34,258 nucleotides of DNA, from the NCBI GenBank assembly GCA_029879945.1, contig JAOUPJ010000002.1, forward strand, positions 1-34,258, given 5' to 3'. Source of the DNA: Gammaproteobacteria bacterium (lineage in GTDB: Bacteria; Pseudomonadota; Gammaproteobacteria; S012-40). Shown here in pieces: positions 1,995 to 30,642 of this stretch; the first letter of the stretch is position 1, and the number at the start of each line of letters is the position of its first letter. The notes under the pieces were generated by a model. It did not search any database. It saw only the letters and a program-made list of their open reading frames with translations, and was not told the DNA's origin. A program made the position numbers and the translations under genes.

Positions 1995-2351
1995 ATGAAA
2001 ATAAATAGCCAGGCTTTCAAACAATTAGATCAATTTGATTACCATAGTGTGTTAGAAGAGACCAAGGGAATCAGTCTGGTTTTATTCGTCAAACAGAGTT
2101 GCTCGTCTTGCAAGAGCTGGGCAAGCCTGCTGCTAAATTATCAAAACTTTCACCCAGCCATTCAGCTATTCTTACTGGATGTGGAACGTGACCCTGGTTT
2201 AGGGGAGGAATTTGAACTGTTCCACCTGCCCGGTATTTTTCTATATATCGATGGTCAGTTTCACGCGACTATTCAATCGGAAGCCAGGCTTTCTCAATTT
2301 GAGGCCGCAGTTCAAAAGGCTGTGTTTTCCCTTCCACAAGAGACGCCCTAG
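1995..2351 (+). CDS. Thioredoxin-fold protein with a CxxC (CSSC) motif
   Basis: 118-aa ORF. VLFVKQSCSSCKSW followed by ..LPGIFLYIDGQ.. matches thioredoxin-like beta-alpha-beta topology with a redox CxxC. It is divergent from the helical-protein/ABC1 operon. Confidence 0.6.
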   Translation: MKINSQAFKQLDQFDYHSVLEETKGISLVLFVKQSCSSCKSWASLLLNYQNFHPAIQLFLLDVERDPGLGEEFELFHLPGIFLYIDGQFHATIQSEARLSQFEAAVQKAVFSLPQETP

Positions 2352-2698
2352 TAGGTTTTGCTCATTAAATAACTAGCATATAGTCTATGGAAAATAATTA
2401 AACAGTTTCATCAACATTTTGTAAAAAAAATTACTTTCTATTTCAACCGCTTTTCTGATTTTTACTTTTTCTTTTCCTTTCGCCCTTGAATAAGCGACCT
2501 TTTAGAACTAAAAATATGTACTCATTTGGTTGGCGCATCGTTCTCTACCACTGGGCAAACAGTAACCAACGTGTTTTTAAACCCGATTGGTGTGTTACCA
2601 GGTAACGAGAAGATCGTTGGACAAAATCTTCGCGCTTTTGGCACGATATTGTTTTGATACCGCTTTATCAAACTTACTTATTTCTGGGAACAATCTAA

Positions 2699-4816
2699 AT
2701 GGATATGCAAAACGGAAGAACCATTACTTCTGTTTCGGGAGACTCTTACTCTTCAGTTTTTTCCGAGCTTCATGCACTGGGTGATCGTTCAACCACCGCA
2801 TTATTTTCACTGGACGCCGAAGGAAATATCACCGCATATAGCGGCAGCCTTACTGCCGATGCCAACGCAATGATCGGGACCAGCATCTTTAGTGAATCAA
2901 ACCCTCTGAATGTGTTATCCCCTTATTTTGAATTTCTCATTGCCGGGGATACGATTTCTGAAAACTGTGTGCTGGAAGACAGACGTTATCGCGTCACCCT
3001 TATTCCCATTAAATTTAACAAATCCATCGTATCGATTTCAGGCACTCTAATTCGCAATTCCGATATAGAACTCACGCTCAGTAAGTTGACTGAATTCCAA
3101 CGGCATTACTTGTTATTGTCTCAATACTCCAGCGACATCATTACTTCACTGGACGATCAAGGGTCTGTGACCTATGCATCACCCACACTACAACGCGTAT
3201 TGGGGTACAGCAGCGGCGATTTAATCGGGGGCCCCATCTATGAACTCTTCAGCGGCGAAGATACCCGCGCAAAAAAGAGAGTCTTTAGCAAGATTCTTAG
3301 CCAGCTTCCTGGCCAATCCACTAGCTATCGGATTCAACGCAAAGACGGTGAGTTTATTTGGTTAGAGACCACCACCCGAGCCATCCTGCAGGGAACGCAG
3401 GAAGACCCCAAAGAGATCCTGACCGTTTCACGAGATGTGACCGAGCGCAAGGAAACAGAGGAACGTCTCCTTTATCTAGCAAACTATGACTCCCTTACCG
3501 GATTACCCAATCGTGCCCTGTTTCGTGATCGACTTCGTCGCGCCATTGCCAGGGCTCAACGCAACGACACCCGAGTTGCCCTGCTGTTTTTGGATCTGGA
3601 TCGATTTAAAAATATTAATGACAGCCTGGGTCACCAGGCCGGCGACCAATTATTACGGGGCGTGGCCAGACGTCTCAAGCACTATGCGCGAAAAGGGGAC
3701 ACCATCGCACGATTGGGGGGTGACGAGTTTACCGTGATTTTGGAAGGGATAAATCACCCTGATGACGCTGCAGTAGTCGCTAAAAAGATTCTGGAACTCA
3801 TGGAACCCGCCTTCAAGGTAGATGGCCACGAAGTAGTCGCCTCGCCCAGCATTGGGATCACCGTCTATCCAGACGATGCGGCTGATATGCGTACCCTGCT
3901 TAAGAATGCCGACACAGCCATGTATCGCTCTAAAGAGCGCGGAAGAAACCGCTATCAGTTCTACACCTCTGATATGAACGCCAAGGCCTATCAGTACCTG
4001 TTACTGGAAAATAATCTGCGCCATGCCCTGGAACGCGAGGAATTCTGCCTGCATTTTCAACCGCAATTGGATTTGCACACTCAGGGAATTATCGGCATTG
4101 AGGCCCTGCTGAGGTGGAACCACCCGGAGCAAGGACTGATATCGCCGGAAAATTTTATTCCCTTTACCGAGGAGACCGGACTAATCATTCCCATCGGCCA
4201 ATGGGTGCTGCGCGCAGCATGTAAGGAAGCCATGCACTGGCAACGCTCCGGGCTGGCTCCCGTGAGAGTTGCAGTCAATCTCTCGATGCGCCAATTTCGT
4301 CAGAAAGACTTTGTCAACATGGTGGCCGAAGCGCTGGACGAAAGTGGCCTGGAAGCCAAATATCTGGAGTTGGAGATTACCGAAAGTTTTCTCGCGCACA
4401 ACGTGGAACAAGCCACCGCGATTCTGCGGGATCTACACGATTTGGGGGTACAGCTATCCATAGACGATTTTGGAACGGGTTATTCCTCCTTGAACTATCT
4501 GCGAAATTTTCCGCTCAACACGCTCAAGATAGACCAGTCCTTCGTACAGGACATTTCAAAAAATCCGGAAGGGGCAACCATCGCCGAGGCCATTATTGCG
4601 CTGGGGCAAAGTCTGGGGCTCAACGTAATGGCTGAGGGTGTGGAGTCAGAAGATCAGGTCTTTTTCCTCCGTGGCCGTGGTTGTGATCAGGTCCAGGGAT
4701 ATCTGTTCAGCCACCCCTTACCTTCCGATCAGGTCATGAGCTGGATGAGGCGAAATCGCAAACATCAAACCCTGTACGAACAACATCACCTGTGGCCAGA
4801 GGCCGCTCGACTCTAG
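2699..4816 (+). CDS. PAS-PAS-GGDEF-EAL signalling protein (diguanylate cyclase/c-di-GMP phosphodiesterase)
   Basis: 705 aa. It carries the PAS-like ALFSLDAEGNITAYSG and SLDDQGSVTYASPTLQRVLGY segments. The GGDEF domain has an RKGD I-site 5 residues before RLGGDEFTV. The EAL domain shows EALLRW, ELEITES, DDFGTGYSSL, KIDQSF, EGVE and QGYLFS. Confidence 0.92.
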   Translation: MDMQNGRTITSVSGDSYSSVFSELHALGDRSTTALFSLDAEGNITAYSGSLTADANAMIGTSIFSESNPLNVLSPYFEFLIAGDTISENCVLEDRRYRVTLIPIKFNKSIVSISGTLIRNSDIELTLSKLTEFQRHYLLLSQYSSDIITSLDDQGSVTYASPTLQRVLGYSSGDLIGGPIYELFSGEDTRAKKRVFSKILSQLPGQSTSYRIQRKDGEFIWLETTTRAILQGTQEDPKEILTVSRDVTERKETEERLLYLANYDSLTGLPNRALFRDRLRRAIARAQRNDTRVALLFLDLDRFKNINDSLGHQAGDQLLRGVARRLKHYARKGDTIARLGGDEFTVILEGINHPDDAAVVAKKILELMEPAFKVDGHEVVASPSIGITVYPDDAADMRTLLKNADTAMYRSKERGRNRYQFYTSDMNAKAYQYLLLENNLRHALEREEFCLHFQPQLDLHTQGIIGIEALLRWNHPEQGLISPENFIPFTEETGLIIPIGQWVLRAACKEAMHWQRSGLAPVRVAVNLSMRQFRQKDFVNMVAEALDESGLEAKYLELEITESFLAHNVEQATAILRDLHDLGVQLSIDDFGTGYSSLNYLRNFPLNTLKIDQSFVQDISKNPEGATIAEAIIALGQSLGLNVMAEGVESEDQVFFLRGRGCDQVQGYLFSHPLPSDQVMSWMRRNRKHQTLYEQHHLWPEAARL

Positions 4817-10980: not shown

Positions 10981-11033
10981 AATCTGGACCAATCGGCAGG
11001 CAGCGATGGTGTTTCCAGCTTAAAAGAAAAAAA

Positions 11034-11059
11034 GCCGTTACCCTCCCTTAGGTAACGGC
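11034..11059 (-). terminator. Rho-independent terminator of the histone-like gene (also sits behind moeA)
   Basis: 9-bp stem GCCGTTACC / GGTAACGGC with an 8-nt loop. On the minus strand it is followed by TTTTTTTCTTTT. Confidence 0.65.
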
Positions 11060-11093
11060 TTCTCCAGCCAAAATGTAAGCTAACTACGCTGTT

Positions 11094-11645
11094 CTAACCC
11101 AAGAAGCCGAAAGATGGCGGTGGTTGATTATTGGAGCCATTGTTCGAATCATTCCCACTGGAAGAATTCGAGGTTCCAACATTTGCACTCTTCTTCGCCT
11201 GATCAGCAACCTTTTTAGCAGCTGATTTTTCGGCCTTTTTAGCTACAGCGGCGGCTTTCTTCTTCGCCGCAGCGGCCTTTTTCTTGTCGGCAGCAGCTTT
11301 ACGTTTAGCAGCAGCGGCTCTTTCCTTAGCCTTTTCTTTAGCATCCCAGTCACGATCCCACTTCTTCTCGAATGCCTTAAGGGCTGAGGCTTTAGCCTTT
11401 TTCTTGGCTGCGGCCTGCTTCTTAACCGCCGCTGCTGCTTTCTTGGCGTCAGCTATTTTTTTTTTTGCTGCAGCTTTTTTCTTAGCTGCAGCTTTTTTCT
11501 TACCTGCAGCCTTTTTCTTGGTAGCTGCCTTTTTCTTGGTGGCTACCTTCTTCTTGGTGGCTACCTTCTTCTTGGTAACTACCTTCTTCTTAGCAACCTT
11601 CTTCTTGGTTGCCTTCTTCTTTGCTGTGGCTTTCTTCTTTGCCAT
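11094..11645 (-). CDS. Lysine/alanine-rich histone-H1-like nucleoid protein (AlgP/Hc1-like composition)
   Basis: 183 aa starting MAKKKATAKKKATKKKVAKKKVVTKKKVATKKKVATKKKAATKKK.. with more KA repeats downstream. The tail is Ser/Asn/Gly-rich and ends PPPSFGFLG. A strong AAGGAG RBS sits 6 nt before the ATG. Confidence 0.78.
   Translation of the reverse strand: MAKKKATAKKKATKKKVAKKKVVTKKKVATKKKVATKKKAATKKKAAGKKKAAAKKKAAAKKKIADAKKAAAAVKKQAAAKKKAKASALKAFEKKWDRDWDAKEKAKERAAAAKRKAAADKKKAAAAKKKAAAVAKKAEKSAAKKVADQAKKSANVGTSNSSSGNDSNNGSNNQPPPSFGFLG
11467..11640. repeat. Tandem 18-nt (6-codon) coding repeats inside the histone-like gene
   Basis: Units GCTGCAGCTTTTTTCTTA x2 and GTGGCTACCTTCTTCTTG x2 are each identical pairs. 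Five to six degenerate 15-18-nt units flank them. They encode the (K)KK(V/A)A(T/A) repeats. Confidence 0.85.
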
Positions 11646-11682
11646 GTTGATCTCCTTTTAGGGTCCCCAAACGAATTTGCGT

Positions 11683-11711
11683 ATCATCACAAAAAACTAC
11701 GTTGTATGCAA
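11683..11711 (-). promoter_or_regulatory. Candidate sigma70 promoter of the histone-like gene
   Basis: Minus strand: TTGCAT, a 17-nt spacer, then GATGAT preceded by TGt (extended -10). This sits ~30 nt upstream of the RBS. Motif match only. Confidence 0.3.
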
Positions 11712-12130
11712 ACTTCTTCGGTTCAATTTTCCATTACTTTAAAAGATTTTAGACCTTTTTCATCAATTTTGTTGTAAAAGACAAAAAATTTCTAAAATTT
11801 TGTCCAATCCAAACGCAAAAATGTTGCCGTTCGTACATTTTTTTTTCAAAAAACGACTCTTCAACGCAATTTTTTTCAAAATAATTGTCTTCAAACTTAG
11901 ATTTTTTGTTTGAACACGAGAAAATTTCAGTTACAAAGCCCGAATTAGAAATTCAAATCACACTTTTTGGCAAATTTTCTCTGATCAAAAGTGAAAATCA
12001 TCCTGCGAACTACAAAAATCGACGACCCAAAACTCCAAATCACTGCATTCAACTCCGTTCAAATGAATTTTTTGCTTGTTGAAAGCAAGAAATTTTCATA
12101 TCAACGATCGAAAACAGGGCTCCATTATTC
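11690..12130. promoter_or_regulatory. Very AT-rich tract with phased A/T runs (predicted intrinsically curved DNA) upstream of the histone-like gene
   Basis: There are dozens of A4-9/T4-9 runs. Between 11727 and 11800 they recur about every 9-11 bp (11727, 11738, 11747, 11756, 11767, 11776, 11783). TTTTTTCAAAA occurs twice (11841-11851 and 11871-11881). No credible ORF. Confidence 0.45.
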
Positions 12131-12879
12131 AATTTGCGGAACATAGTTGCCGTTTTTCCAATTAACGGAGGAAAATTTTGAGTCATTTTTGTATTCTGCA
12201 CCCCGTTGGACATGAACAAGGGTTAAAATTTTGCTCCGTGAGTCAGAAATGTTCCAAGGCTTAGCGATCCAGCCCTGCAGTTTAGGTCACGAAGATCAGA
12301 GTTCATCGCTTGTTTCAGAGAAACGAGTAAAAAGACTAACTCAAACTATGAAATTCTCCGTGAGCTCCTCTCTAAGCGCTATCAAGCGGATTTAATGTGC
12401 GATGATCATTGCGCTAGCTCCTCCAATCGGGCCGGTAGTATCCGTTCTGGTGGCGTTTAGCGGGTATATCTGGAACTCAGGGCAATATCGCCTCAAAGAA
12501 AGTACACTATCTTAGTAAGGGCCAAGTATCAGCAGCGCTTTTCACCTTCAAGATCTGTATTGAAACGTTTCAAATCGAAATAGCCGCCTATCTCTACTCC
12601 AGGAAAAGGAAGACGCAACATCAACACTCGGCACTCGTCCAACCAGAGCAGGACAAACCGGAAATGCGTGGTGAAAGTTAGCCCTCAGGGCCATCTAGCT
12701 ATCTTCCTACCATAGCATGATTCCCAAATCGACCGACTCCATTTTTCGGTCATTTGGAAACGCATCCCACAGATTCAACCGGACCGGCAATGCAAAGAAT
12801 TCTTGTCACATGCTTTCGATGCTTAATGGGTGGAGAGTAGTTAGGAGGGAAAAGGACTAGTCAGCGACACAAAAGAAAA

Positions 12880-15520: not shown

Positions 15521-16951
15521 ATGCGTAAACGCCTTCTAATCCTGTTTATTCCCCTGTCGCTTTTATTTCTGATTTTCATCGGCCCCTGGCCAATTGATAC
15601 CACTCACTTTGCCGATACAGAATACTCGCGTTCAACATTGAGAGGGATTAATGACAGTGCCCCGAAAATCAGTCGCGGGGCATTGAAGGCGGGTATGTCA
15701 GTTATGGATATTACGCCACCACCGAGAGTCCCCTTGGGTGGTTATTCAGCACGTGATCCAAAAGAGAATGAAGGCGTGTTGACTCCGGTGTATGTGAAAG
15801 CGCTGAGTTTTGCAAATGGTAAGGAAACGTTCACCTACATCAGCGCAGATATCCTGCTCCCCTTGGAAGACTATGTGAATGCCGTTGTAGAGGGGACTCA
15901 TCTCCCCAGAGCCAATCTGTTTTTTACCTCTAGCCATACTCATTCCGGTCCTGGCGGTTATCAGGAAGGCCTGGTTGCGCAAATGAGCCTGGGAGACTTT
16001 CATCCCCATTACTTTCAGACCCTGGTTCAACAGACCATCCATGCGGTCAATCTCAGTCGCAGCAGACTTAAACCGGCGCAATTATCCTATCAGCGCATGC
16101 GTCTTTCCAAAGAACAGGTGGCTCATTTTGTTTATGACCAATTAAACAAGGGCCCCAATGGCTACCCCACACTCCATGCATTACAACTGCAGGAATTGAA
16201 CAGCAAGCGTGATATTGCCACATTGATCACCTTTAGTGCCCATCCCACTTTTCTAGGCCGCGTGAATAAAAAAATCCATGGTGATTACCCCAGCCTATTA
16301 GTAAGTAAGCTCGAACTCAGCCTGGGTCACCCGGTGATTTTTTCCATTGGGGCCGTGGGAGGTTCTTTGCCGATGGGTCTGGGAAAACCACCCATGGATA
16401 CAGTGGATGTGCAGTTGGCGCAGATGGAAAGTATGAGTAATGAATTTCACGATATCCTTTTTAATAGCCTGAATATTCGACCGAGAGCGGTCAACGACAA
16501 AGTGAAAGGCGACACCTTCCAAACAGAAATCCAGTGGCAGGCAAGTTCTTTGGAGATCGGTAGCCTAGTCAGCGAGGTGCAACTCCCCAGCCCCACCTAC
16601 CGTCTCACTGATCAATGGCGCTTGAGTCCCCTTATGATCAATGGACTGTTTCATAGCAATACCAGCTATCTCCATGCACTAAGACTGGGCAGAATTATGT
16701 TTATTGGATTTCCCGCCGACACCTCGGGCGAGTTGGCAAAGAATCTGGAGGACTGGGCCGCCAAGCAACCCATCTATCCATGGGTGACTTCCTTTAATGG
16801 GGACTATATTGGGTATCTGAGCGCGCAGAAACGCTATTCGGAAAAACACTACACCGTGCGCGATGTGAATCTCTTTGGTCCCTGGGGGGGAGACTACCTC
16901 ACTGAGGTGGCAAAAGAGATATCTCTAAAGGTATCGCAAAATCCGCTTTAA
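15521..16951 (+). CDS. Neutral/alkaline ceramidase N-terminal-domain-like hydrolase, secreted or membrane-anchored
   Basis: 476 aa with an N-terminal hydrophobic anchor (LLILFIPLSLLFLIFIGPW). PLGGYSARD, ADILLP and SSHTHSGPGGY resemble the Zn-binding region of neutral ceramidases. It is shorter than the Pseudomonas enzyme as I recall it. Confidence 0.55.
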   Translation: MRKRLLILFIPLSLLFLIFIGPWPIDTTHFADTEYSRSTLRGINDSAPKISRGALKAGMSVMDITPPPRVPLGGYSARDPKENEGVLTPVYVKALSFANGKETFTYISADILLPLEDYVNAVVEGTHLPRANLFFTSSHTHSGPGGYQEGLVAQMSLGDFHPHYFQTLVQQTIHAVNLSRSRLKPAQLSYQRMRLSKEQVAHFVYDQLNKGPNGYPTLHALQLQELNSKRDIATLITFSAHPTFLGRVNKKIHGDYPSLLVSKLELSLGHPVIFSIGAVGGSLPMGLGKPPMDTVDVQLAQMESMSNEFHDILFNSLNIRPRAVNDKVKGDTFQTEIQWQASSLEIGSLVSEVQLPSPTYRLTDQWRLSPLMINGLFHSNTSYLHALRLGRIMFIGFPADTSGELAKNLEDWAAKQPIYPWVTSFNGDYIGYLSAQKRYSEKHYTVRDVNLFGPWGGDYLTEVAKEISLKVSQNPL

Positions 16952-19281: not shown

Positions 19282-20952
<1,671 letters not shown>

Positions 20953-20999: not shown

Positions 21000-22337
21000 C
21001 TAGAAGCTGATCAAAGAAGCCGCTATACCGATCTGTTCACGGTTGGTATCGGAGGCTTTGTTGGTAGAACGTGTCACGGTCAGTTGGTAACTCACTTCGA
21101 TATCAATATTTTTCGTCAGTTCGTAGACTAGGGCGGCATAAGCACGATAACGCCGGTCGCGTCGAAACTCGCCGCTAAGAGATGGCACATCATACTCGGA
21201 TTCCCGATAGCTGCCCCCTGCACCCACTATCCAGCGATCGAATAGCCTCAGCCTGCCATCGGCATCCACTCTTTTCCGGGTCGGCGAGATACTCGTCCAA
21301 GCGATCTTACTGAATAGATAGATATCGTCCGGTCTTTGTTCATGCTTGGTCTGATCATATTCATAACGCAGCCGCAGCCAACTGGAAGACTGGCCCAATG
21401 AATATCGAGCCCCCAGGCGAATACGATGTCGCATACCACTATCGTAGCTTAGATATTCGACCGTTTTATAGGTTTTTTCAGCCTGGTATCTGGCATCAAA
21501 GCGTAGTTTCTTAGTGGTATTGTGTTTGGCGTCCAGTTGCAAGGAATAACTTTGGGTGTAATCTTCCTTATAGATTCGCGTAAGATTGTAGTTCAACACG
21601 CTATCTAATGAGAAACTGTCCCAAAGGGCATGGTGACCCAAGCCCAGGGTGTAGAGTTCTATGCGTGGCAAGATCCCTGAATCGGGTTCTCGAACAAATA
21701 GAAATCCTTCAACGCCAACATTTCTTAAAAAACCATATCTCGCCAGCCTGGTTTCCGCTGTCAGATTCAATTCGGTAAAACTTGAGCTAATGGCTGGCGT
21801 AGCGCCGTTATCTATTCTTTCCCAGTCGGGTTCACTTTCATAGGCCCTCACGAGATTCAGAATGATGAGCCTATCCAGGCTTGAATCGTCTTTATTAATC
21901 CTGCGCAAAACCTCTCTGGCCAGACGTTGAATCTGCGGCGACTTACCGTGGTCTAAGATTTTCCGCAGCCATATTTCAGCTGCATTGTATTGTTCTTCTC
22001 TTACCGCAAGCAGGCCCAGATTGAGATAGGCTCGATCGCGAAATTCCCTATTTTCGGTCAGCGCAATAAAAAGGGGTTTGGCTTCTGCGTATCTTGTTAG
22101 CTTGTAGAGTGTAACGCCAAGATTGAATGTGAGTTTGGGATCATCCATGCCCTTGGACTGAGCCTCTTCAAAGAAAGACAGGGCCAAGGAATAGTTCTGT
22201 TTTTCAAATTCTGATATACCCTTCTCAAATATCTGCTCCGCTGCCTTATCCGCAATAGCTGTATTGGCAAAAAGCAACATTGTCAGAACAGCAAACAGCC
22301 TTTTCAATCGATCCCCCGGAATCCCACAAAACCACAT
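21000..22337 (-). CDS. Outer-membrane protein with an N-terminal TPR domain and a C-terminal ~14-strand beta-barrel (Slam/DUF560-like architecture)
   Basis: 445-aa ORF with signal peptide ..KRLFAVLTMLLFANTAIA|DK. TPR-like helices occupy ~30-150 (YSLALSFFEEAQ.., YAEAKPLF.., YNAAEIWLRKIL..). Alternating aromatic/charged strands follow to the C-terminal IAASLISF. The start may instead be the TTG at 22307 (GGGGG 5 nt upstream). Confidence 0.7.
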   Translation of the reverse strand: MWFCGIPGDRLKRLFAVLTMLLFANTAIADKAAEQIFEKGISEFEKQNYSLALSFFEEAQSKGMDDPKLTFNLGVTLYKLTRYAEAKPLFIALTENREFRDRAYLNLGLLAVREEQYNAAEIWLRKILDHGKSPQIQRLAREVLRRINKDDSSLDRLIILNLVRAYESEPDWERIDNGATPAISSSFTELNLTAETRLARYGFLRNVGVEGFLFVREPDSGILPRIELYTLGLGHHALWDSFSLDSVLNYNLTRIYKEDYTQSYSLQLDAKHNTTKKLRFDARYQAEKTYKTVEYLSYDSGMRHRIRLGARYSLGQSSSWLRLRYEYDQTKHEQRPDDIYLFSKIAWTSISPTRKRVDADGRLRLFDRWIVGAGGSYRESEYDVPSLSGEFRRDRRYRAYAALVYELTKNIDIEVSYQLTVTRSTNKASDTNREQIGIAASLISF

Positions 22338-22411
22338 CGAAGTATATTTATAGACTTTGTTGGCTTAGGCAAGAATTTTTTCATTGCCGCAGCTTTTTAT
22401 TTTTAGTCGAC

Positions 22412-22445
22412 AAAAAAAACACCCTGGCAGTTGCCTACCAGGGTG
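22412..22445 (-). terminator. Rho-independent terminator after the acidic repeat protein gene
   Basis: Minus strand: CACCCTGG taggcaactg CCAGGGTG followed by T8, 33 nt past the stop codon and ahead of the OMP gene. Confidence 0.7.
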
Positions 22446-22477
22446 GAGCTAAGGAGAAAACTTCCCTATCTATATTC

Positions 22478-23191
22478 TTAACCGCGAACTTCGTCGGCCT
22501 TATCTTTTCCCTTTTCGGCAGCATCCTTCGCGCTGTCTACTGCATCTTGGGCGGCCTCGTTTGCATGCTCAGCCGCATTGTCGGCAGCGTCTTCAGCAGC
22601 GTCATTTGCATTGTCTGCAGCATCTTCAGCGGCTTCGTTTGCGTTCTCAGCGGCATCTTCAGCAGCGTCATTTGCATTGTCGGCAGCATCTTCAGCGGCT
22701 TCGTTTGCGTTCTCAGCGGCATCTTCAGCAGCGTCATTTGCATTGTCTGCGGCTTCTTCAGCGGCTTCGTTCGCATGCTCAGAAGCATCATCTGATGCGT
22801 CATTAGCCTTGTCTGCGGCATCGTTCGCGTGATCTTTGCCCATTTCCGCGTGCTCTTGACCGGCCTCTTTCTTGTCTTCAGCCATGTCTTTGGCATCATC
22901 AGACTGGTCAGAAGCATGATCTGCGGCATCATCATTTGAATCATCGCTGTGATCGTCACGCTTTTCACGTGCTTCGTTTGCAGTCTCCAGACCCTTAGCA
23001 GACATCTCTCTGCCCTTATCTGAAGCGGCTTCTGGTAATTCCAGTTCTCTCACTGCAGCTTCCGGTAATTCCACACCATCGGCTACAACACTCATGCCCA
23101 CATTTTCGATATCATCGATATCAACTGCGAAAGCAGGAGCCACACTGACGGCCCATACTGAAAGGGCCAGTAAAATTGATTTTGGATTCAT
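22478..23191 (-). CDS. Secreted hyper-acidic Ala/Asp/Glu/Asn repeat protein (non-lipoprotein signal peptide)
   Basis: ATG at 23191 after GGAG plus 6 nt. The signal peptide is MNPKSILLALSVWAVSVAPAFA|VD, with no lipobox Cys. The mature part has ~71 D/E versus ~17 K/R in ~215 residues by hand count. The core is ANDAAEDAAENANEAAEDAADN, repeated. Confidence 0.75.
   Translation of the reverse strand: MNPKSILLALSVWAVSVAPAFAVDIDDIENVGMSVVADGVELPEAAVRELELPEAASDKGREMSAKGLETANEAREKRDDHSDDSNDDAADHASDQSDDAKDMAEDKKEAGQEHAEMGKDHANDAADKANDASDDASEHANEAAEEAADNANDAAEDAAENANEAAEDAADNANDAAEDAAENANEAAEDAADNANDAAEDAADNAAEHANEAAQDAVDSAKDAAEKGKDKADEVRG
22570..22798. repeat. Tandem 66-nt (22-codon) repeats with 33-nt sub-periodicity inside the acidic protein gene
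   Basis: GTCATTTGCATTGTC recurs at 22601, 22667 and 22733. Copies 22601-22666 and 22667-22732 differ at a single base (T/G). The flanking copies are more diverged. Confidence 0.9.
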
Positions 23192-23227
23192 GACCAACTC
23201 CTTAAAATCGGTTCTATATAGATTGCT

Positions 23228-23935
23228 CTATATGGCAATCTGGTTAGTGTCAACATAGCGGACTTGCCCATCCTCTATTGCATCCACTAAAACCTTGAGA
23301 ACTTTTGCTTTACCATCGTTCTCTATTTTCGTAATTACCTCGCCACCCATCATGGCCTGGTGAGCTACTACGGGTAATTTGAGGACATTCTGTCCTTGAT
23401 GCAGATCTGTCTTCCAGCTCATTTCGCTAACGCCGGGGTAGCCACTCAATTCCATCATAGGAGGCAGCTTCACGGTTAACGTGACATCCTGCATATCGCC
23501 AGGGGCGTTAAACAAAACGCGCAAAGGATGCACCTTCGCAACGCTCACCTTGACCACCGGCAGATTCAGACTTGCTTGAGAACCTGGGTTCGTAGCAGGA
23601 ATCACACTGGTCTCAGGTGATAGAAACACTGTTACTCCCAGCCAAACTGCCAGACTGGCTGCGATCGCCGAGCTAAAACCAATGGTGAATCCCTTGCGGT
23701 GTGACTTGCTCGCAGGCCTTTCCAAGGCTGCGAAAACTTCGTCTGCAAAACCCTTACGGGGACCCGGCACCTTGTCCAGATCAATCAGCGCGTGTTTGAT
23801 TTTATTTTCCAAATCAAATAGCTGCGCACATTTTTCACATTCCGCCAAATGCTCGTCAAGCTGCGCCTGACGGATGGGGTGGAGCCTGCCGACCAGGTAG
23901 TCATCAATTTGGTTTTGTGCTGTTTGACAATTCAT
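23228..23935 (-). CDS. Membrane-spanning zinc-binding (ZAS-type) anti-sigma factor with a periplasmic beta-rich domain
   Basis: It has the full C3-x25-H29-x3-C33-x2-C36 motif (..DEHLAECEKC..). One TM segment (FTIGFSSAIAASLAVWLGVTVFL) is followed by a ~130-aa C-terminal domain. GAGGA RBS; it starts 16 nt after the sigma gene stop. Confidence 0.8.
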   Translation of the reverse strand: MNCQTAQNQIDDYLVGRLHPIRQAQLDEHLAECEKCAQLFDLENKIKHALIDLDKVPGPRKGFADEVFAALERPASKSHRKGFTIGFSSAIAASLAVWLGVTVFLSPETSVIPATNPGSQASLNLPVVKVSVAKVHPLRVLFNAPGDMQDVTLTVKLPPMMELSGYPGVSEMSWKTDLHQGQNVLKLPVVAHQAMMGGEVITKIENDGKAKVLKVLVDAIEDGQVRYVDTNQIAI

Positions 23936-23951
23936 AATGTGTCCTCAAACT

Positions 23952-24521
23952 CTAACACGCTTCAACACGGGAAAAGGTTCCATTCTTTAATTTGTCTCGC
24001 AGACTGGATCTAGCGCGATGCAGTCTGGATTTCACGGTTCCTATGGGTAGACAAAGCATGTCTGATATCTCATCTAGACTATAGCCTTCGATTTCAAACA
24101 TTTGAATGAGAAGTTTTTGGTCTTCGCTGAGCGAGTCCATAGCGCGGCGCACTTCGTTGCGGAAGTCGTCCTGGGTTGCTTCTTCTTCGGGGTCGCCAAA
24201 TTCACTTTCAGAATGTTCGTATTCGATCTGGCTGTCACCATCCAGATCGCTTAAATTCTTTATAGGGGAACGGGTGTATCGTCTACGGTCATCGATAAAA
24301 ATTCGATACATCACCTTGGATAACCAGATATCCAGTCTTTCAATATTGACCAGCTCATCGTAGCGGCTGAACATTTTGGTGACCAGTTCCTGAACCAGGT
24401 CTTCGGCATCATCCTGGTTCTGGGTGAAACGGTAGGCTACACGATATAGTTTTTCGAAGTGAGGACGGATTAGCGCCTCATACGCTGCAGCCTGATTACG
24501 AAAACCGTTTATCACTGCCAT
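23952..24521 (-). CDS. ECF (group 4) RNA polymerase sigma factor
   Basis: Region 2 reads FEKLYRVAYRFTQNQDDAEDLVQELVTKMF. Region 4 reads LSEDQKLLIQMFEIEGYSLDEISDMLCLPIGTVKSRLHRARSSLRDKL. The likely start is the ATG at 24521 (MAVINGF..) after GGAGAA; the ORF-track start at 24623 adds an implausible 34-aa extension. Confidence 0.87.
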   Translation of the reverse strand: MAVINGFRNQAAAYEALIRPHFEKLYRVAYRFTQNQDDAEDLVQELVTKMFSRYDELVNIERLDIWLSKVMYRIFIDDRRRYTRSPIKNLSDLDGDSQIEYEHSESEFGDPEEEATQDDFRNEVRRAMDSLSEDQKLLIQMFEIEGYSLDEISDMLCLPIGTVKSRLHRARSSLRDKLKNGTFSRVEAC

Positions 24522-24629
24522 TGAATTCTCCGAGATCGCCCAATTAGATGTAGAAATTAGTAGCCCCCAACAAGCAGTCCCGGTTCGAAAACCGGTTCTA
24601 CCGGAAGGGGGCTGGATGGGCATAAGCTA

Positions 24630-24656
24630 ACACGCATCAACCCATCCAAAGGTTCC
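24630..24656 (-). promoter_or_regulatory. Candidate ECF-type autoregulated promoter (GGAAC-N17-CGTGT)
   Basis: Minus strand: tGGAACc tttggatgggttgatg CGTGTT, ~110 nt upstream of the sigma ATG. This fits the generic ECF -35 GGAAC / -10 CGT pattern. Motif match only. Confidence 0.4.
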
Positions 24657-24744
24657 ACAATATTGCGTTGTGAGCCTGAATCTTATGTGAGCCAGCTTAA
24701 ACGAGTATTAGCCAGGCACAGAAAAAACTATTATCTTATTGATA

Positions 24745-26088
24745 TTATAGCATTTTTACATGAATAGACGGCTCTCGGTTGCGGGCAAGAAAGGCTTCGT
24801 CTACCCAGTAACCCACAACGGCCGCCAGTTTCTCATCTATATAAATCAAGGGGATACGATTTCTTTCCCAGGGAGGGATTTTTTCGTCCTGAAAAAGTTT
24901 TTTTAGTTTGTGTCTGCCTCGACCGGCCAACGTGATCTGTTCTCCCCCTTGGCGAAAACGGATCTCGGTTTTTTGAGACGATTCAATTTTGTGTATGCTC
25001 AGGCCCTGATCGTCTATCACCAGGCTTCTCAGTGTTCCGACTCCCGCAATCTCCAGATCGCTTTTGCCGTCCCAGGGAATCGGTTGCGACTCATCGAAAG
25101 ACTGCAAAGGCGCTAAGCAATACAACACGCCTTGAAAGCGCCTCAATTCTTTACCGCAACAAAAAAGGACGGGTTCCGCATCTTCCCAAGCATGTAACAT
25201 TTGTTGCGCGATCTGGTTTAGCTGTTCGGTGCTCGGGCTACTTCCGGTTAGTTTCATCAACCAATAGCGGATGAGCTGGATGGCCTCGTCTTCGTTAAAT
25301 GCGCTGAGCTTGTCTAGATTCAATTGATCGGCCCTGATCAACTGGGGGAGTAGTTTTTCTTCCAGACTGGCGTCGAGTATTGCACATAGCTGCCGGCTAT
25401 GATCAGCGCTGCGGGAAACGGCCTTGGCGGCGGAGGGCCAGCGGGATTTCAGTTTGGGTATGACTTCGTGTCTCAGAAAATTGCGGTCATGGTGTAATAA
25501 TTGGTTGCTTGGATCTTCAATCCAGTTCAGTTCATGGGCACGGGCATAGTCTTCTATTTCGGATCGACTCACGCCCAGCAATGGACGAATGTGCAGGCCG
25601 GTGGAAAATTCTCTGCACAGGTCCATGGCCGAAAGACCATGTGGCCCAGCCCCTCGCATCAATTGCAGCAGCACCGTTTCGAATTGATCATCTTGATTGT
25701 GGGCAGTGAGCAGCACGCTCTTGTCAGACATGTTCCCTGCCAGCGCCTGGTATCGTACCTCACGGGCTGCCGCTTCCAGACCCAGACCACGAGACAAGTC
25801 CACCTCCACATTGATGGCCGTGAATTCCACGCCCCACTCAGCACAGATATGCTGGCAGTGACTGGCCCATTCATCGGCTTGCGTCTGTAACTGGTGATTG
25901 ATATGCACGGCGCGCAGGGTGGCGTTTTCTTTATTCTTTAATATGCGGTGAAGCAGATGTAAAAGCACTGTGGAATCACAGCCACCGCTGAATGCCACCA
26001 CAATGTGTTGCGGCGGCGGCACTGGGTCGACCACCTGTTCCAGGCAGGTTTCTAGTGTGTGAAGTACTCTTTCGGCGAGTGGTTCCAT
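24745..26088 (-). CDS. tilS: tRNA(Ile)-lysidine synthetase
   Basis: 447 aa with the PP-loop VAFSGGCDSTVLL, HINHQLQ, AHNQDDQ.ET.L..L.RG and a C-terminal TilS substrate-binding domain. Confidence 0.9.
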   Translation of the reverse strand: MEPLAERVLHTLETCLEQVVDPVPPPQHIVVAFSGGCDSTVLLHLLHRILKNKENATLRAVHINHQLQTQADEWASHCQHICAEWGVEFTAINVEVDLSRGLGLEAAAREVRYQALAGNMSDKSVLLTAHNQDDQFETVLLQLMRGAGPHGLSAMDLCREFSTGLHIRPLLGVSRSEIEDYARAHELNWIEDPSNQLLHHDRNFLRHEVIPKLKSRWPSAAKAVSRSADHSRQLCAILDASLEEKLLPQLIRADQLNLDKLSAFNEDEAIQLIRYWLMKLTGSSPSTEQLNQIAQQMLHAWEDAEPVLFCCGKELRRFQGVLYCLAPLQSFDESQPIPWDGKSDLEIAGVGTLRSLVIDDQGLSIHKIESSQKTEIRFRQGGEQITLAGRGRHKLKKLFQDEKIPPWERNRIPLIYIDEKLAAVVGYWVDEAFLARNREPSIHVKML

Positions 26089-26146: not shown

Positions 26147-27112
26147 CTATACCGCGAGATCTTTGTATCTCCCGAAGCCCATCAGACGATCGTAACGCGC
26201 ATCCAGCAATTTATCCACCGACATGGCGGTGAGCAAATCCAGATTTTCAGTGAGTGCGTCTTTGAGTCGCGTTGCCATGCCATCCACATCGCGGTAGGCA
26301 GAACCCAGGGGCTCTTCGATGACCTGGTCGATCAGACCCAGCTGCTTTAATCGATCCGCGGTAATTCCCATGGCGTCTGCCGCGGTGGAGGCATACTCGG
26401 CGCTCTTCCACAAAATGGAGGCGCAGCCTTCTGGGGAAATGACTGAATAGGTGCTGTATTGCAACATCATGACGCGATCGCCGACTCCGATGGCCAGTGC
26501 GCCACCCGAGCCTCCTTCACCGATCACGGTGCAGAGGATGGGAACCTTGAGGCCGGCCATGACCAGCAGGTTTCTGGCGATGGCCTCACTCTGTCCACGC
26601 TCTTCGGCACCGATACCGGGATAGGCACCGGCAGTATCGATAAAGGTGAGCACGGGCATCTTGAAACGTTCGGCTAACTGCATCAGACGTAGGGCCTTGC
26701 GATAGCCTTCCGGCCGGGGCATGCCCCAGTTTCGTCTCACGTTTTCCTTGGTGTCTCGACCCTTTTGATGGCCGATTATCATCACCGGATCACCGTTTAG
26801 CCGTGCAATTCCACCGACTATGGCCGGGTCGTCGCCAAAGGCTCTATCGCCGTGCATCTCTTCAAAATCGGTGAAGATACGATCGATGTAATCTTGCGTG
26901 TAGGGTCGACGCGGGTGCCTGGCCAATTGGGATATCTGGCCTGCACTCAAGGAGGAGAAGATTTGCTTGGTTAAATTCTTACTTTTTGATTCCAAACGTT
27001 GAATTTCATCTGAAATATTGATTTCGGTATCGTTGCCTACATAACGTAGTTCTTCAATTTTGGCTTCCAGCTCGGCAATCGGCTGTTCAAATTCCAGGAA
27101 ATTTAAATGCAT
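26147..27112 (-). CDS. accA: Acetyl-CoA carboxylase carboxyltransferase alpha subunit
   Basis: [23 protein letters not shown].., [32 protein letters not shown] and [10 protein letters not shown] motifs. Confidence 0.96.
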
Positions 27113-27189: not shown

Positions 27190-30100
27190 CTAACGATATT
27201 GCAAATCCACATTCTCCGCCCCGACCAATCTTTTAATCTGCGTTAAAGCCGACTCGTTTGGTGAGACAGACCACTGGGCGGGCAGACGTAGACTGCCACG
27301 TCCCGTGGAATTTTGATAATCGATAATCACTGGGCACGAGCCCTCCTGGTGTTCCTTCAGAATACCCTGCAAGGAGTGAACAAAACCGTTACCTGCCAGT
27401 TTTTCGTTTGCACGAATGATCAGGCGCTTGGCATACAGATTTCTGGCGGCAGGGATATCAAAAACCTCTTTCACATTGACTCGCATGCCACCGCTGAAAT
27501 CGTCTATACCCACATCGGCGACAAAAACGAAGATCTTGTCCACCTGCACCTGCTCGGCATATTTACTATAAGCATCTGAAAATAATGTAAATTCTTGACG
27601 GGCCGTTTTGTCGTCCACGGTAAGAATGGCCATGGTGTCGCCCCGTTTGGTCTTTCTCGTGCGCACACCCAGAATCAGACCGGCCAACACGGCATTTTGA
27701 TATTTTTCTGTGGGGAGCTTGGCCAGCTTATGCGTGACAAACTGATCTATCTCACTCTGCCAGCGATCCAGGGGGTGCCCGGAGAGATAGAGACCCAGTG
27801 ATTCCTTTTCCAACTCCAGGCGTCGCTGCTCTTGCCATTCATCTTGCTCATTCCAGACCACAGCCTGTTCCGTTGCTTGTTCATCACTAAAACCAAACAG
27901 GTCATTTTGCCCGGTACTGAGCGCCTCTTTGTGTTGCTCGGCAGTCTGCAAGGCGCTACTCAGGGTGGACATAAGCGTGGCCCGATTAGGACCCAGCTTG
28001 TCCATGGCACCGGATTTGATCAGGGTTTCCAGAGCCCGTCGGTTTAGTTTTTTCAGATCGACGCGTTTACAAAAATCGAAAAGTTGCGGGTAGACCCCAT
28101 TGAGCAGGCGCTCGTCTTTGATGGCCAATATGGCAGACTCGCCCACACCCTTGATGGCACCCAAACCGTAATAGATATTCTGGTTTTCCACTGTAAAGGG
28201 GTAATCACAGGAATTCACATCGGGAGGGACAACAGGAAGCCCCATGGTTCGACATTCCTCGATCAAGCCCACCACTTTGTCGGTGTTGTCCAAATCGGCC
28301 GACAGCACGGCCGCCATGAACTCGGCCGGGTAATGGGCCTTGAGCCAGGCGGTTTGGTAGGAGACCAGGGCGTAGGCCGCCGAGTGCGATTTGTTAAAAC
28401 CATAACCGGCAAATTTTTCCATCAAATCAAATATATAGGTAGCCAGCTTTTCATCGATACCGCGCGCCAGAGCCCCCTGAGTGAAGATCTCGCGCTGCTT
28501 GGCCATCTCCTCGGGTTTCTTCTTACCCATGGCTGGGCGCAGCATATCGGCGGCCCCCAGGGTGTAGCCTGCCAATACCTGGGCGATCTGCATGACCTGC
28601 TCCTGGTAGAGGATAACACCGTAGGTGGGTTTGAGTATGGGCTCCAGATCCGGATGGGGATATTCCACCCTGGCGCGGCCATGCTTACGATTGATGAAGT
28701 CGTCCACCATGCCCGATTGCAAGGGACCCGGTCGGAACAGGGCCACCAGGGCGATAATGTCTTCGAAGGAATCGGGTTGCAGCCTGCCGATCAATTCCTT
28801 CATGCCACGAGATTCCAACTGGAACACAGCGGTGGTCTGGCAGGCCTGCAATAACTTGAATGTGTGCGCATCATCGAGCGGAATGCGGGTGATGTCTACC
28901 TGCTCTCCCCGAGACTTGATGATATTTTTCACCGCCCAATCGATGATCGTGAGGGTGCGCAGACCCAGAAAATCGAACTTGACCAGGCCCACTGCCTCCA
29001 CATCGTCCTTATCGAATTGGGTAACGAGCGAGTCTCCATTCTCCTCGCAATACAGCGGCGAAAAATCGGTGAGCGCCGTGGGCCCGATAACCACCCCTCC
29101 CGCATGCTTGCCTGCATTACGGGTGATGCCTTCCAGGGAGCGGGCCAGATCAATCATGGTCTGCACCTCTTCCTCATCGGTGTAGCGCTGGCGCAGGGCC
29201 TCCTCCTGGTCTAGTGCCTTTTCTAGGGTGATCCCGATTTCGAAGGGAATGAGTTTGGCAATTTTATCAACAAAACCATAGGGATGGCCTAGTACCCGGC
29301 CCACATCGCGCACCACCGCCTTGGCCGCCATGGTGCCGTAGGTGATGATCTGGGAAACGCGGTCTCGTCCATAGTGTTGCGAAACGTATTCGATAACGCG
29401 ATCGCGATTTTCCATACAGAAATCGATATCAAAGTCGGGCATGGAGACCCGTTCCGGATTAAGAAAGCGCTCAAACAGCAGATCGTATTCCAGTGGGTCC
29501 AGATCGGTGATGGTCAGGGCGTAGGCCACGAGGGAACCCGCCCCCGAACCCCGTCCCGGCCCCACGGGGATGCCGTGTTCCTTGGCCCAACGAATGAAGT
29601 CGGCAACGATGAGGAAGTAGCCGGGGAAACCCATCTGGATGATCGTATCCAGTTCCCAGTCCAGGCGGGCTATATATTCTTTGCGCTTCTCTGCGTATTT
29701 GGGATCGGCCTTGTCCAACAGAATTTCAAGACGCGCCTCTAGACCTTTGTGAGACTCGGCTCTGAGAAAATCGTCGACGGTCATGCCCTCGGGCACGGGG
29801 AAGTTGGGTAGAAAATTTTCACCCAGGGTCAGTTCCACATTGCAGCGCTTGGCGATCTCGACGGTGTTGGCCAGCGCTTCGGGCAAGTCGGCGAATAACT
29901 CCGCCATCTCTTGCGGGCTACGCAAATACTGTTGATCGGTGTAACGACGGGGTCGTCGTGGGTCGTCCAGGGTGCGGCCATCGTGGATACAAACGCGTGC
30001 CTCATGCACCTCGAAGTCGTCCTGCTGGAGAAACATGACGTCGTTGGTGGCGACCACAGGTAAATCATTTTCCAAGGCCAGAGAAACCGCCAATGCATTG

Positions 30101-30642
30101 TAGTCTTCTTCATTGGGGCGACCGGTACGTTGTAACTCCAGGTAAAAACTATCGGGAAAACGATCCTGCCAGAACGTGAGTAACTGGGAAACCTGAGACG
30201 GGTCAGAATTCAATAGAGCACGGCCCACGTCTCCCTCACGACCACCAGAGAGGGCGATCAGACCTGAAGTCATCTCCTGGGTCAGCCAGTCGTACTGCAT
30301 CACAGCACGGCCATGGCGCTGCCCTTCGGTGTAAGAGCGGGAGACAAGCTCAGCCAAACGCCGGTAACCTTCAGTATGCTTACACAATAAGGTGACGCGA
30401 TGCGGGGCATTCAGATCTTTATCATTTTGCAGGTAGGCATCGACACCGATAATGGGTTTAACGCCGGTGGCTAGGGCAGCTCGGTAGAACTTGACCATGG
30501 CAAAGAGATTGGATTGGTCTGTTAAAGCGACGGCAGGCATCCATGCCTCACGCACGGCACCCATTAAGGGTTTGACCCGTACGATACCGTCGACAAGCGA
30601 AAACTCGGTGTGACACTTTAAATGAACGAACGAAGCATCCAT
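27190..30642 (-). CDS. dnaE: DNA polymerase III alpha subunit
   Basis: 1150 aa with the PHP domain FVHLKCHTEFSLVDG, GFPGYFLIVADFI, PGRGSGAGSLVAY, PDFDIDF, KFDFLGLRTLT, GYGFNKSHSAAYA and a C-terminal OB domain. Confidence 0.98.
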   Translation of the reverse strand: MDASFVHLKCHTEFSLVDGIVRVKPLMGAVREAWMPAVALTDQSNLFAMVKFYRAALATGVKPIIGVDAYLQNDKDLNAPHRVTLLCKHTEGYRRLAELVSRSYTEGQRHGRAVMQYDWLTQEMTSGLIALSGGREGDVGRALLNSDPSQVSQLLTFWQDRFPDSFYLELQRTGRPNEEDYNALAVSLALENDLPVVATNDVMFLQQDDFEVHEARVCIHDGRTLDDPRRPRRYTDQQYLRSPQEMAELFADLPEALANTVEIAKRCNVELTLGENFLPNFPVPEGMTVDDFLRAESHKGLEARLEILLDKADPKYAEKRKEYIARLDWELDTIIQMGFPGYFLIVADFIRWAKEHGIPVGPGRGSGAGSLVAYALTITDLDPLEYDLLFERFLNPERVSMPDFDIDFCMENRDRVIEYVSQHYGRDRVSQIITYGTMAAKAVVRDVGRVLGHPYGFVDKIAKLIPFEIGITLEKALDQEEALRQRYTDEEEVQTMIDLARSLEGITRNAGKHAGGVVIGPTALTDFSPLYCEENGDSLVTQFDKDDVEAVGLVKFDFLGLRTLTIIDWAVKNIIKSRGEQVDITRIPLDDAHTFKLLQACQTTAVFQLESRGMKELIGRLQPDSFEDIIALVALFRPGPLQSGMVDDFINRKHGRARVEYPHPDLEPILKPTYGVILYQEQVMQIAQVLAGYTLGAADMLRPAMGKKKPEEMAKQREIFTQGALARGIDEKLATYIFDLMEKFAGYGFNKSHSAAYALVSYQTAWLKAHYPAEFMAAVLSADLDNTDKVVGLIEECRTMGLPVVPPDVNSCDYPFTVENQNIYYGLGAIKGVGESAILAIKDERLLNGVYPQLFDFCKRVDLKKLNRRALETLIKSGAMDKLGPNRATLMSTLSSALQTAEQHKEALSTGQNDLFGFSDEQATEQAVVWNEQDEWQEQRRLELEKESLGLYLSGHPLDRWQSEIDQFVTHKLAKLPTEKYQNAVLAGLILGVRTRKTKRGDTMAILTVDDKTARQEFTLFSDAYSKYAEQVQVDKIFVFVADVGIDDFSGGMRVNVKEVFDIPAARNLYAKRLIIRANEKLAGNGFVHSLQGILKEHQEGSCPVIIDYQNSTGRGSLRLPAQWSVSPNESALTQIKRLVGAENVDLQYR

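Follow-up and report, generated by a model that had tools for sequence, protein, structure and literature searches.

The stretch of DNA analysed here (the window; 34,258 nucleotides (nt) of a Gammaproteobacteria bacterium, GenBank assembly GCA_029879945.1, contig JAOUPJ010000002.1) carries between tilS and pyrG a module of four genes, encoding an extracytoplasmic function (ECF) sigma factor, a single-pass anti-sigma factor, a Sec-exported hyperacidic protein and an outer-membrane protein (OMP) composed of a tetratricopeptide repeat (TPR) domain and a beta-barrel. Based on sequence, the sigma factor would recognize GGAACC-N17-CGTGT promoters, one at its own gene (P1) and one within its own 3' end (P2), and P2 would drive a two-gene operon for the membrane anti-sigma factor and the hyperacidic protein, closed by a strong terminator. 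The OMP gene always adjoins this operon but usually appears to be a separate transcription unit. We tentatively read the module as an ECF-controlled envelope system that yields a secreted polyanion, which the neighbouring barrel would handle; we give this reading slightly less than an even chance.

Conservation of the module was assessed from both ends. For the anti-sigma side, a four-sequence alignment (A3) was scanned against a metagenome collection, in which 235 loci carry relatives of the anti-sigma factor; 80 of these were kept. In nearly all 80, an ECF sigma gene lies directly upstream and an open reading frame (ORF) with an aspartate plus glutamate (D+E) fraction of 0.3-0.59 lies directly downstream. 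An OMP of the same superfamily follows in 32/32 loci whose sequence extends 2.6 kb or more downstream, as detected with a barrel profile that was iterated on a small ORF set, some of its matches falling in the TPR region, so that some drift towards TPR sequences is possible. Some of these OMPs are of the ~430-amino acid (aa) type found in the window; the others measure 535-560 aa and share its TPR start. From the OMP side, an acidic gene lies upstream in five of the six homologues with upstream sequence: the contigs of P0008 and P0007 encode an ECF sigma factor, a ~220-aa membrane protein, an acidic secreted protein and the OMP, P0006 is preceded by a membrane protein and an acidic protein, and upstream of both P0003 and P0009 is a truncated gene encoding an acidic C-terminus. 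This co-occurrence upholds the original prediction in so far as the four genes do form a functional unit. The module is widespread in marine-sediment and hydrothermal-vent metagenomes, and the source databases name its relatives, where they name them at all, as hypothetical, ECF-type sigma factor or zinc-finger proteins.

The sigma factor matches Pfam Sigma70_r2, Sigma70_r4_2 and Sigma70_ECF, scores 105.7 bits against NCBIfam TIGR02937 (cut-off 42.9) and is ~40% identical to the sigma genes of related loci. Its most likely start is the ATG used in Table 1, which is preceded by a GGAGAA Shine-Dalgarno sequence and yields an N-terminus that aligns with those of homologues. Having sigma-2 and sigma-4 domains only, and exceeding the TIGR02937 cut-off, the protein belongs with the ECF (group 4) sigma-70 factors; an anti-sigma gene directly downstream (16 nt) and putative AAC-type -35 and CGT-type -10 elements at its own locus agree with that class.

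An ECF-like promoter had been proposed upstream of the sigma gene and was located there (P1), and an exact second copy of the element occupies the last sigma codons (P2), where the DNA encodes ...GTFSRVEAC* and lies 20 nt before the anti-sigma ATG. The pattern, which has 15 specified bases, was scanned over the 34-kb window and gave two exact matches against 0.06 expected by chance, with no further match in the window even at two mismatches. A repeat finder picked up the same pair independently (family D5). Across related loci, GGAAC-N16/17-CGT is present at the sigma 3' end in 73 of 79, with a 17-nt spacer in 70; the -10 element falls within the coding sequence in 16 loci and past the stop codon in 57. 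The -35 (GGAACC.TT) and -10 (CGTGT) elements are invariant among the P2 copies and the spacer sequence is variable. Conservation at fixed spacing wherever the stop codon falls argues for a promoter element maintained at the DNA level, not for a protein constraint, and makes P2 a clean example of overlapping code, in which the stop codon shifts across -35 and -10 elements that stay in place. Read as codons, GGAACC specifies the Gly-Thr of a conserved sigma C-terminal tail, DGT[FIL]S (3' sigma ends, L017-L099).

The region upstream of the sigma gene is less uniform. Related GGAACyTTT...CGTnT motifs precede it in L012, L017, L026 and L027, and a P1-type copy is confined to the window's own sub-clade. 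In a large clade, GGAAC...CGTGT is absent upstream of the sigma gene, so the sigma factor is probably not autoregulated there. Another conserved element, TGCCAAC-CGCTTCCTTGT-N17-TACACT, precedes the sigma gene in that clade (e.g. L092:5280-5352, L040:5300-5377); just ~12 nt separate it from the sigma ATG, it appears sigma-70-like and it would give a nearly leaderless mRNA. In the window itself, the leader between P1 and the sigma ATG (24540-24620, minus strand, ~100 nt) holds a short inverted repeat followed by Ts (CCGGTAGAACCGGTTTTCGAACCGG), and an ATG at 24623, the expected P1 transcription start, opens a long form of the sigma ORF. Either the inverted repeat or this ATG could modulate sigma expression.

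The original prediction had a terminator followed by the OMP gene, and a strong hairpin was located at that position (22445-22420; 11-bp stem with seven G-C pairs, T8 tail). The stretch that holds it (22405-22480) folds at -27 kcal/mol (z = -2.97), and a G+C-rich hairpin with a T-run separates the acidic and OMP genes in 30 of 37 unique loci. Since P2 and the terminator are both conserved, the conserved transcription unit runs from P2 through the anti-sigma and acidic genes to the terminator. No ECF promoter precedes the OMP gene in the window or in related loci, and ECF control of the OMP gene, as proposed earlier, was not borne out. In L012 and L018, the OMP gene is translationally coupled. 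An opposite-strand 672-aa ORF, which by eye begins like a protein kinase, stands between the acidic and OMP genes in L040 (7144-9162, minus strand; identical in L041), where the module tolerates an insertion at the terminator position.

The acidic gene of the window is preceded by a proper ribosome-binding site (AAGGAG, 6 nt, ATG). Of the intergenic distances reported earlier, the 16 nt between the sigma and anti-sigma genes was exact, and the 30 nt between the anti-sigma and acidic genes is measured to a TTG but becomes 36 nt when counted to this better-placed ATG. The protein has a D+E fraction of 0.30 and a pI of about 4.1. Its signal peptide, MNPKSILLALSVWAVSVAPAFA|VD, with predicted cleavage at AFA|VD and predicted Sec export, contains no cysteine; the protein is therefore not a lipoprotein, and Pfam finds no barrel domain in it, in keeping with the earlier view that it is neither a lipoprotein nor a beta-barrel cargo. 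Only weak low-complexity Pfam matches were returned (YtxH, apolipoprotein, Ag473). The tandem repeat in its gene, detected with Tandem Repeats Finder, encodes the 11-aa units ANDAAEDAAEN and ANEAAEDAADN and has a 66-nt higher-order period with copies 90% identical (also recovered as find_repeats families D1-D3).

A common plan emerged from 73 unique N-termini of acidic proteins: a signal peptide, a ~33-residue motif with an invariant proline, and a tail. The motif follows the pattern [ILVM][DE][DE][ILVM][DE][ILVM][ST][ILVM]x[ILVM][ILVM][DE] ... P[DE]; its consensus is LDDLDVTMEVLDD...SEMRGPE and the window version is IDDIENVGMSVVADG...ELELPE (DIDDIENVGMSVVADG...ELELPE in the feature list). The tails are strongly acidic throughout (D+E 0.3-0.59) and conserve neither sequence, length nor repeat structure. 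With its Ala/Asp/Glu/Asn-rich composition, the window tail is atypical, being Ala-rich and helix-compatible with an 11-residue period, whereas most others are rich in Asp, Glu, Gly, Ser and His. The earlier description of a helical-repeat protein thus suits the window's Ala-rich tail and fails as a family trait, the Asp/Glu/Gly-rich tails of most relatives having no fixed sequence. A short conserved motif joined to a free polyanionic tail suggests a docking or recognition element on a part that would act by bulk charge.

Two further features were seen in the acidic proteins of the large clade, and the window protein has neither. A second island, [DE]F[DE][DE]G[DE]D[IV]D.D, occurs in 36 of 58 complete sequences (e.g. 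L085:6088-6615, L092:6518-7009), and 28 of the 58 have a penultimate valine (-V-D/E/V end), a residue that makes up only 3% of the tails. Such ends are reminiscent of the C-terminal EEVD peptides bound by TPR domains. The island (DFEDGEDIDDDEF) was considered as a calcium site and rejected, as by eye it fits neither the EF-hand nor the DxDxDG calcium-loop consensus.

The anti-sigma factor scores 28 bits against zf-HC2 (PF13490; cut-off 22.2), and its residues C3, H29, C33 and C36 are invariant across four homologues. Its N-terminal domain contains the H-x3-C-x2-C motif that defines zinc-binding anti-sigma (ZAS) factors, which places it in that class as judged from sequence, and a profile search with it hits RsiW (E = 2.6e-8) and, less strongly, RsrA. 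The periplasmic part (~110 residues) matched no Pfam family and no solved relative. A single-sequence AlphaFold2 model of the protein was poor (predicted local distance difference test (pLDDT) 52) yet all-beta over residues 140-228. A large sub-clade (L040:5938-6495, L076:5986-6519, L085:5527-6072, L092:5941-6495 and about 50 further loci) encodes an anti-sigma homologue without the ~31 residues that bear H-x3-C-x2-C; its short N-terminus may or may not bind the sigma factor in the manner of class II (CnrY-like) anti-sigma factors. This sub-clade keeps the transmembrane segment and the periplasmic domain (33 columns are invariant over six sequences in alignment A6), and it retains the acidic protein and the OMP. 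Because the ZAS helices can be lost while the rest stays, the constant core of the module consists of the periplasmic domain, the acidic protein and the OMP.

The OMP begins with the signal peptide MKRLFAVLTMLLFANTAIA|DK, and the start adopted here is also that of the entry in the public protein collection (P0001). An AlphaFold2 model built with an alignment of relatives reached a mean pLDDT of 84.4 and comprises six to seven TPR helices, equivalent to three TPR pairs (residues ~20-136), followed by 14 beta-strands (147-434), bearing out the short TPR domain and ~14-strand barrel expected from the letters alone. Pfam gave TPR matches and a weak match to BBP2_2. Word-indexed homologue searches with the OMP returned its own protein only or were swamped by TPR words. 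An exhaustive barrel search over 1.84 billion representative proteins recovered eight true relatives of 432-443 aa with the same layout and 21-27% identity; a ninth match, P0004, was discarded as spurious. In a Foldseek comparison with the PDB, the best matches were the 14-strand OmpG and CymA (target-normalized TM-score about 0.7), and PelBC and BcsC were also found. No Slam structure was among these PDB matches, so Foldseek cannot settle the Slam question and the fold comparison is a generic, OmpG-like one. A run against a viral structure library was uninformative, and no solved relative of the barrel was found, the best being FapF at E = 0.76.

The original prediction had placed the OMP with the Slam (DUF560) translocons. 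The architecture is Slam-like, but membership of DUF560 is not supported at the sequence level: the window barrel has no match to PF04575 (SlipAM) even at E<=10, and only two of 39 non-redundant barrels of the wider family match it, marginally, whereas 22 of the 39 match BBP2_2 (PF10082) at E<=0.1 (best E = 7e-10). One OMP encoded in a complete four-gene module, P0007 (L017), scores 23.4 bits against PF04575 (cut-off 22) over profile positions 64-287 of 288. As this match exceeds the cut-off over nearly the whole barrel, the OMP family and DUF560 may be distantly related, and weak TPR_Slam matches occur in four of the eight OMP relatives. Against BBP2_2 the window OMP reaches 22.7 bits (cut-off 23.7) over profile positions 304-372 of 378 only, and in the 11 proteins with match coordinates the BBP2_2 matches cover the last 50-110 barrel residues. 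An electropositive barrel lumen of the AlgE kind was also considered and rejected: barrel net charge varies between family members, with pI values spanning 4.9 to 10.1, and for the window protein a rough strand-alternation count gave no consistently positive lumen.

Regarding the locus, every gene across 16.9-30.6 kb of the window lies on the minus strand, in the order tilS, ECF sigma, anti-sigma, acidic protein, terminator, OMP and pyrG-kdsA-eno (Table 1). The four co-oriented genes between tilS and pyrG were thus all found where they had been reported, and the earlier gene identities stood up to Pfam and NCBIfam with minor corrections only. The expectation that tilS is otherwise followed directly by pyrG-kdsA-eno was met in metagenome-assembled genomes (MAGs) of Woeseiaceae and Thiopseudomonas (L003, L004), in which dnaE-accA-tilS-pyrG-kdsA-eno is unbroken; the 3.7 kb here are therefore extra relative to them, as originally proposed. 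In the large clade, the module sits between ctaB/cox genes and uvrD-trkA and not at tilS/pyrG, and these differing neighbours mark it as an accessory unit with a lineage-dependent position. A Candidatus Thiodiazotropha MAG (L002:11400-18300) has tilS followed not by pyrG but by an OmpA-like protein (by eye) and several unrelated accessory genes, so the 3' side of tilS is a recurrent variable spot and not a peculiarity of the window. The closest TilS among species-representative genomes is only 41% identical. No insertion scars were found at the module (no flanking direct repeats, no tRNA), the genes called between tilS and pyrG include no mobile-element genes, and the G+C content of the module is only slightly below that of its flanks. 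An Rfam scan returned no family and PADLOC no defence family.

Table 1. Positions of the module genes, their control elements and the neighbouring genes in the window.
Feature	Position	Strand	Description
ECF sigma gene	23952-24521	minus	189 aa from ATG 24521; ORF open to 24623
P1	24630-24656	minus	putative ECF promoter GGAACCTTT-N12-GCGTGT upstream of sigma
P2	23955-23981	minus	exact second copy of GGAACCTTT-N12-GCGTGT in last sigma codons
Single-pass anti-sigma gene	23228-23935	minus	235 aa; N-terminal ZAS domain, transmembrane segment ~86-105, periplasmic part
Hyperacidic protein gene (Sec-exported product)	22478-23191	minus	237 aa from ATG; listed ORF 22478-23197
Tandem repeat	22575-22822		in acidic gene; 33-nt unit x 7.5 (11 aa)
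Intrinsic terminator	22412-22445	minus	predicted end of anti-sigma/acidic transcript
OMP gene	21000-22307	minus	435 aa from TTG 22307; listed ORF 21000-22337
tilS	24745-26088	minus	
accA	26147-27112	minus	
dnaE	27190-30642	minus	
pyrG	19282-20940	minus	followed by kdsA, eno

In the account that we tentatively prefer, the ZAS anti-sigma factor would hold the sigma factor at the inner membrane until an envelope signal, sensed via the all-beta periplasmic domain, frees it. The freed sigma factor would fire P2, and P1 as well in the window organism, so that acidic protein would be made in a burst along with more anti-sigma factor, which would close a negative-feedback loop. After crossing the inner membrane by Sec and being cleaved by signal peptidase I, the acidic protein would dock through its ~33-residue strand-like N-terminal motif to the TPR domain of the OMP or to the periplasmic domain of the anti-sigma factor, and the 14-strand barrel would thread its polyanionic tail outwards or display it on the cell surface. 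In that position the tail, through its bulk negative charge, may bind metal cations, cationic peptides or the surfaces of minerals. By analogy, the OMP would work like a Slam/type XI secretion system (T11SS) translocon or a TPR-porin exporter, without demonstrable membership of either group. A TPR domain joined to a barrel is a known outer-membrane export architecture, and the PelBC and BcsC structural matches and the P0007 match to PF04575 support the export reading; the conserved N-terminal motif on otherwise unrelated acidic tails fits a docking signal combined with bulk charge.

Several observations weigh against this account. We only infer, from sequence, that the acidic protein reaches or crosses the OMP. 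The OMP gene, placed behind a terminator and lacking a detectable ECF promoter, is not co-regulated with the operon in a simple sense. The window OMP fails PF04575, and the C-terminal eight-strand barrel by which T11SS cargo is recognized is absent here. Positive charge, which would suit a polyanion, is not a consistent property of the family's barrels. One OMP homologue, P0005 (L019), has no adjoining module, and the loss of the zinc-binding helices in the large sub-clade means that sigma control there may differ.

A different role for the acidic protein, as a co-sensor of the RseB or CnrX kind, is unlikely but deserves the most serious consideration among the alternatives. Here the protein would stay periplasmic with its N-terminal motif on the anti-sigma factor, and the tail would sense polycations, metals or cationic peptides; titrating it away would destabilize the anti-sigma factor and free the sigma factor, and the OMP would be a signal entry point or surface sensor, as FecA is for FecR, rather than an exporter. 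The gene order mirrors the established rpoE-rseA-rseB and cnrYXH arrangements, the third gene would share the P2 transcript with the anti-sigma gene, as suits a stoichiometric partner, and no part of the membrane protein is more conserved than the periplasmic domain with its 33 invariant columns. The alternating hydrophobic and acidic residues of the motif are strand-like as well, which would suit beta-augmentation of an all-beta domain. However, neither RseB/MucB nor CnrX is homologous to the acidic protein, the sigma factor would be left without an effector output beyond its own regulators, and the extreme variability and length of the tails better suit a bulk effector than a regulator. The strict linkage to the OMP (32/32) would go unexplained unless the OMP signals, and the sub-clade without ZAS helices still keeps both the acidic protein and the OMP.

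As a special case of export, the OMP could be a divergent Slam/T11SS (DUF560) member and the acidic protein a new class of T11SS cargo, which we regard as improbable. The shared layout of periplasmic TPR domain and 14-strand barrel, the P0007 score from a complete module and the weak TPR_Slam matches in half of the relatives speak for it, as does the origin of the uncharacterized DUF560 sequence-similarity clusters, mostly water- and soil-associated organisms. Set against these are the missing PF04575 match of the window OMP, the far more frequent match of its relatives to BBP2_2, a candidate cargo that is not a lipoprotein and has no C-terminal eight-strand barrel, and PDB matches that include no Slam and indicate a generic OmpG-like fold.

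The acidic protein might instead remain in the periplasm as a stress-induced cation or Donnan buffer, a protein counterpart of the anionic periplasmic glucans, with the OMP as a separate porin; this, too, has a poor chance of being correct. Bulk-charge tails free of sequence constraint would serve such a purpose, and the terminator and the missing ECF promoter set expression of the OMP apart from that of the operon. But a buffer gives no reason for the 32/32 adjacency of a rare OMP family (eight true relatives of the window type among 1.84 billion representatives) or for the translational coupling in L012 and L018, and it leaves the conserved, docking-like N-terminal motif unexplained. That the acidic ORF is a spurious low-complexity frame in a cluster formed by chance, as overlapping ORFs in other frames of the repeat region and the weak Pfam matches might suggest, has a negligible probability and is in effect refuted by the conservation data: the same position encodes a signal peptide, the conserved motif and the invariant proline in 77 loci, the gene has a proper Shine-Dalgarno sequence and ATG, and the flanking promoter and terminator are both conserved.

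Returning to the export reading, its furthest extension is that the module represents an unrecognized outer-membrane pathway for exporting or displaying disordered polyanions. Such a pathway would consist of a non-DUF560 TPR and 14-strand barrel protein and of an inner-membrane protein that in many lineages doubles as an anti-sigma factor and whose all-beta periplasmic domain would be new, and its cargo would be read via a short N-terminal strand motif rather than a folded C-terminal barrel. We consider this possible, although doubtful. If it is true, the ECF feedback loop, with its promoter written into the end of the sigma gene, would set cargo supply homeostatically, and the pathway could govern how the cell surface interacts with cations or minerals. 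Singly, ECF sigma/anti-sigma pairs and TPR-barrel OMPs are familiar. What is new is a conserved module in which a secreted output of 30-59% Asp+Glu is tied to a dedicated barrel, which is undescribed in the literature searched. The statement in the original prediction that no described system has this composition agrees with the T11SS and ECF literature searched, and no matching description came from searches on PF10082, on non-canonical T11SS cargo or on acidic periplasmic proteins tied to ECF systems. Should the barrel handle the polyanion, the module would add a new cargo type and a mode of recognition by an N-terminal motif to outer-membrane protein export, and it would offer a handle on how abundant sediment bacteria manage surface cations, metals and mineral encrustation.

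Elsewhere in the window, a gene beside eno (15521-16951, plus strand) encodes a 476-aa protein with a match to PF04734, the neutral/alkaline ceramidase N-terminal domain (E = 4e-18); enzymes of this family are not known to be common in bacteria. The G+C content, about 0.50 in the rest of the window, drops to 0.385-0.415 in two patches. One, at 11000-12500, contains a 183-aa ORF (11094-11645, minus strand) and no other; the other patch, at 1500-3000, precedes a gene for a PAS-GGDEF-EAL protein (2699-4816). The sequence TGAAACTTT-N12-CGTCT at 1860 (plus strand), 840 nt upstream of the PAS-GGDEF-EAL gene, is a loosely ECF-like motif and probably due to chance.

Among known systems, the Slam/T11SS translocons (Neisseria Slam1, Xenorhabdus NilB/HrpB) resemble the modelled OMP in their N-terminal periplasmic TPR domain and 14-strand barrel, and in an adjoining Sec-exported protein that the OMP could translocate. 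They differ in that the window OMP and 37 of its 39 relatives have no PF04575 match, and in that T11SS cargo carries a C-terminal eight-strand barrel (TbpBBD/lipoprotein C) and is often a lipoprotein, neither of which holds for the acidic protein. Two T11SS surveys define cargo by this barrel, or by DUF1194 in marine cluster 3, and mention neither acidic cargo nor sigma factors, whereas an ECF sigma/anti-sigma pair is part of the module. BBP2_2 (putative beta-barrel porin 2) provides the commonest barrel-family match of the OMP superfamily, confined to the C-terminal part in the proteins with match coordinates, and is itself a family without known function.

The regulatory half of the module recalls rpoE-rseA-rseB and algU-mucA-mucB in its order of sigma factor, single-pass anti-sigma factor and periplasmic third protein, in the GGAAC-type -35 element and in the proposed sigma-dependent expression of the anti-sigma factor (negative feedback). 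Sequence similarity to these operons is confined to the sigma factor, the anti-sigma factor here being of the ZAS type and closest to RsiW. The third protein is hyperacidic and largely unstructured instead of having an RseB fold; it gave no Pfam or NCBIfam match to MucB_RseB, its likeness being one of gene order only, and a dedicated OMP gene is attached. In FecI-FecR-FecA, a sigma factor, a membrane anti-sigma factor and an outer-membrane protein are likewise encoded together, and by analogy the OMP could signal to the periplasmic domain of the anti-sigma factor. That system differs in its TonB-dependent transducer and its FecR domain, for neither of which the module has a counterpart, and the module has the extra acidic protein in between.

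The exopolysaccharide systems BcsC, PgaA, PelB/PelC and AlgK/AlgE share with the module a periplasmic TPR domain fused to, or partnered with, an outer-membrane barrel, which in those systems passes a charged linear polymer. Their porins have 16-18 strands and long TPR arrays and are encoded in polysaccharide synthase operons. The OMP of the module, by contrast, has a 14-strand barrel with three TPR pairs. Synthase genes are absent from the module, its neighbours being tilS/pyrG or, in relatives, ctaB/uvrD, and its candidate polymer is a protein.

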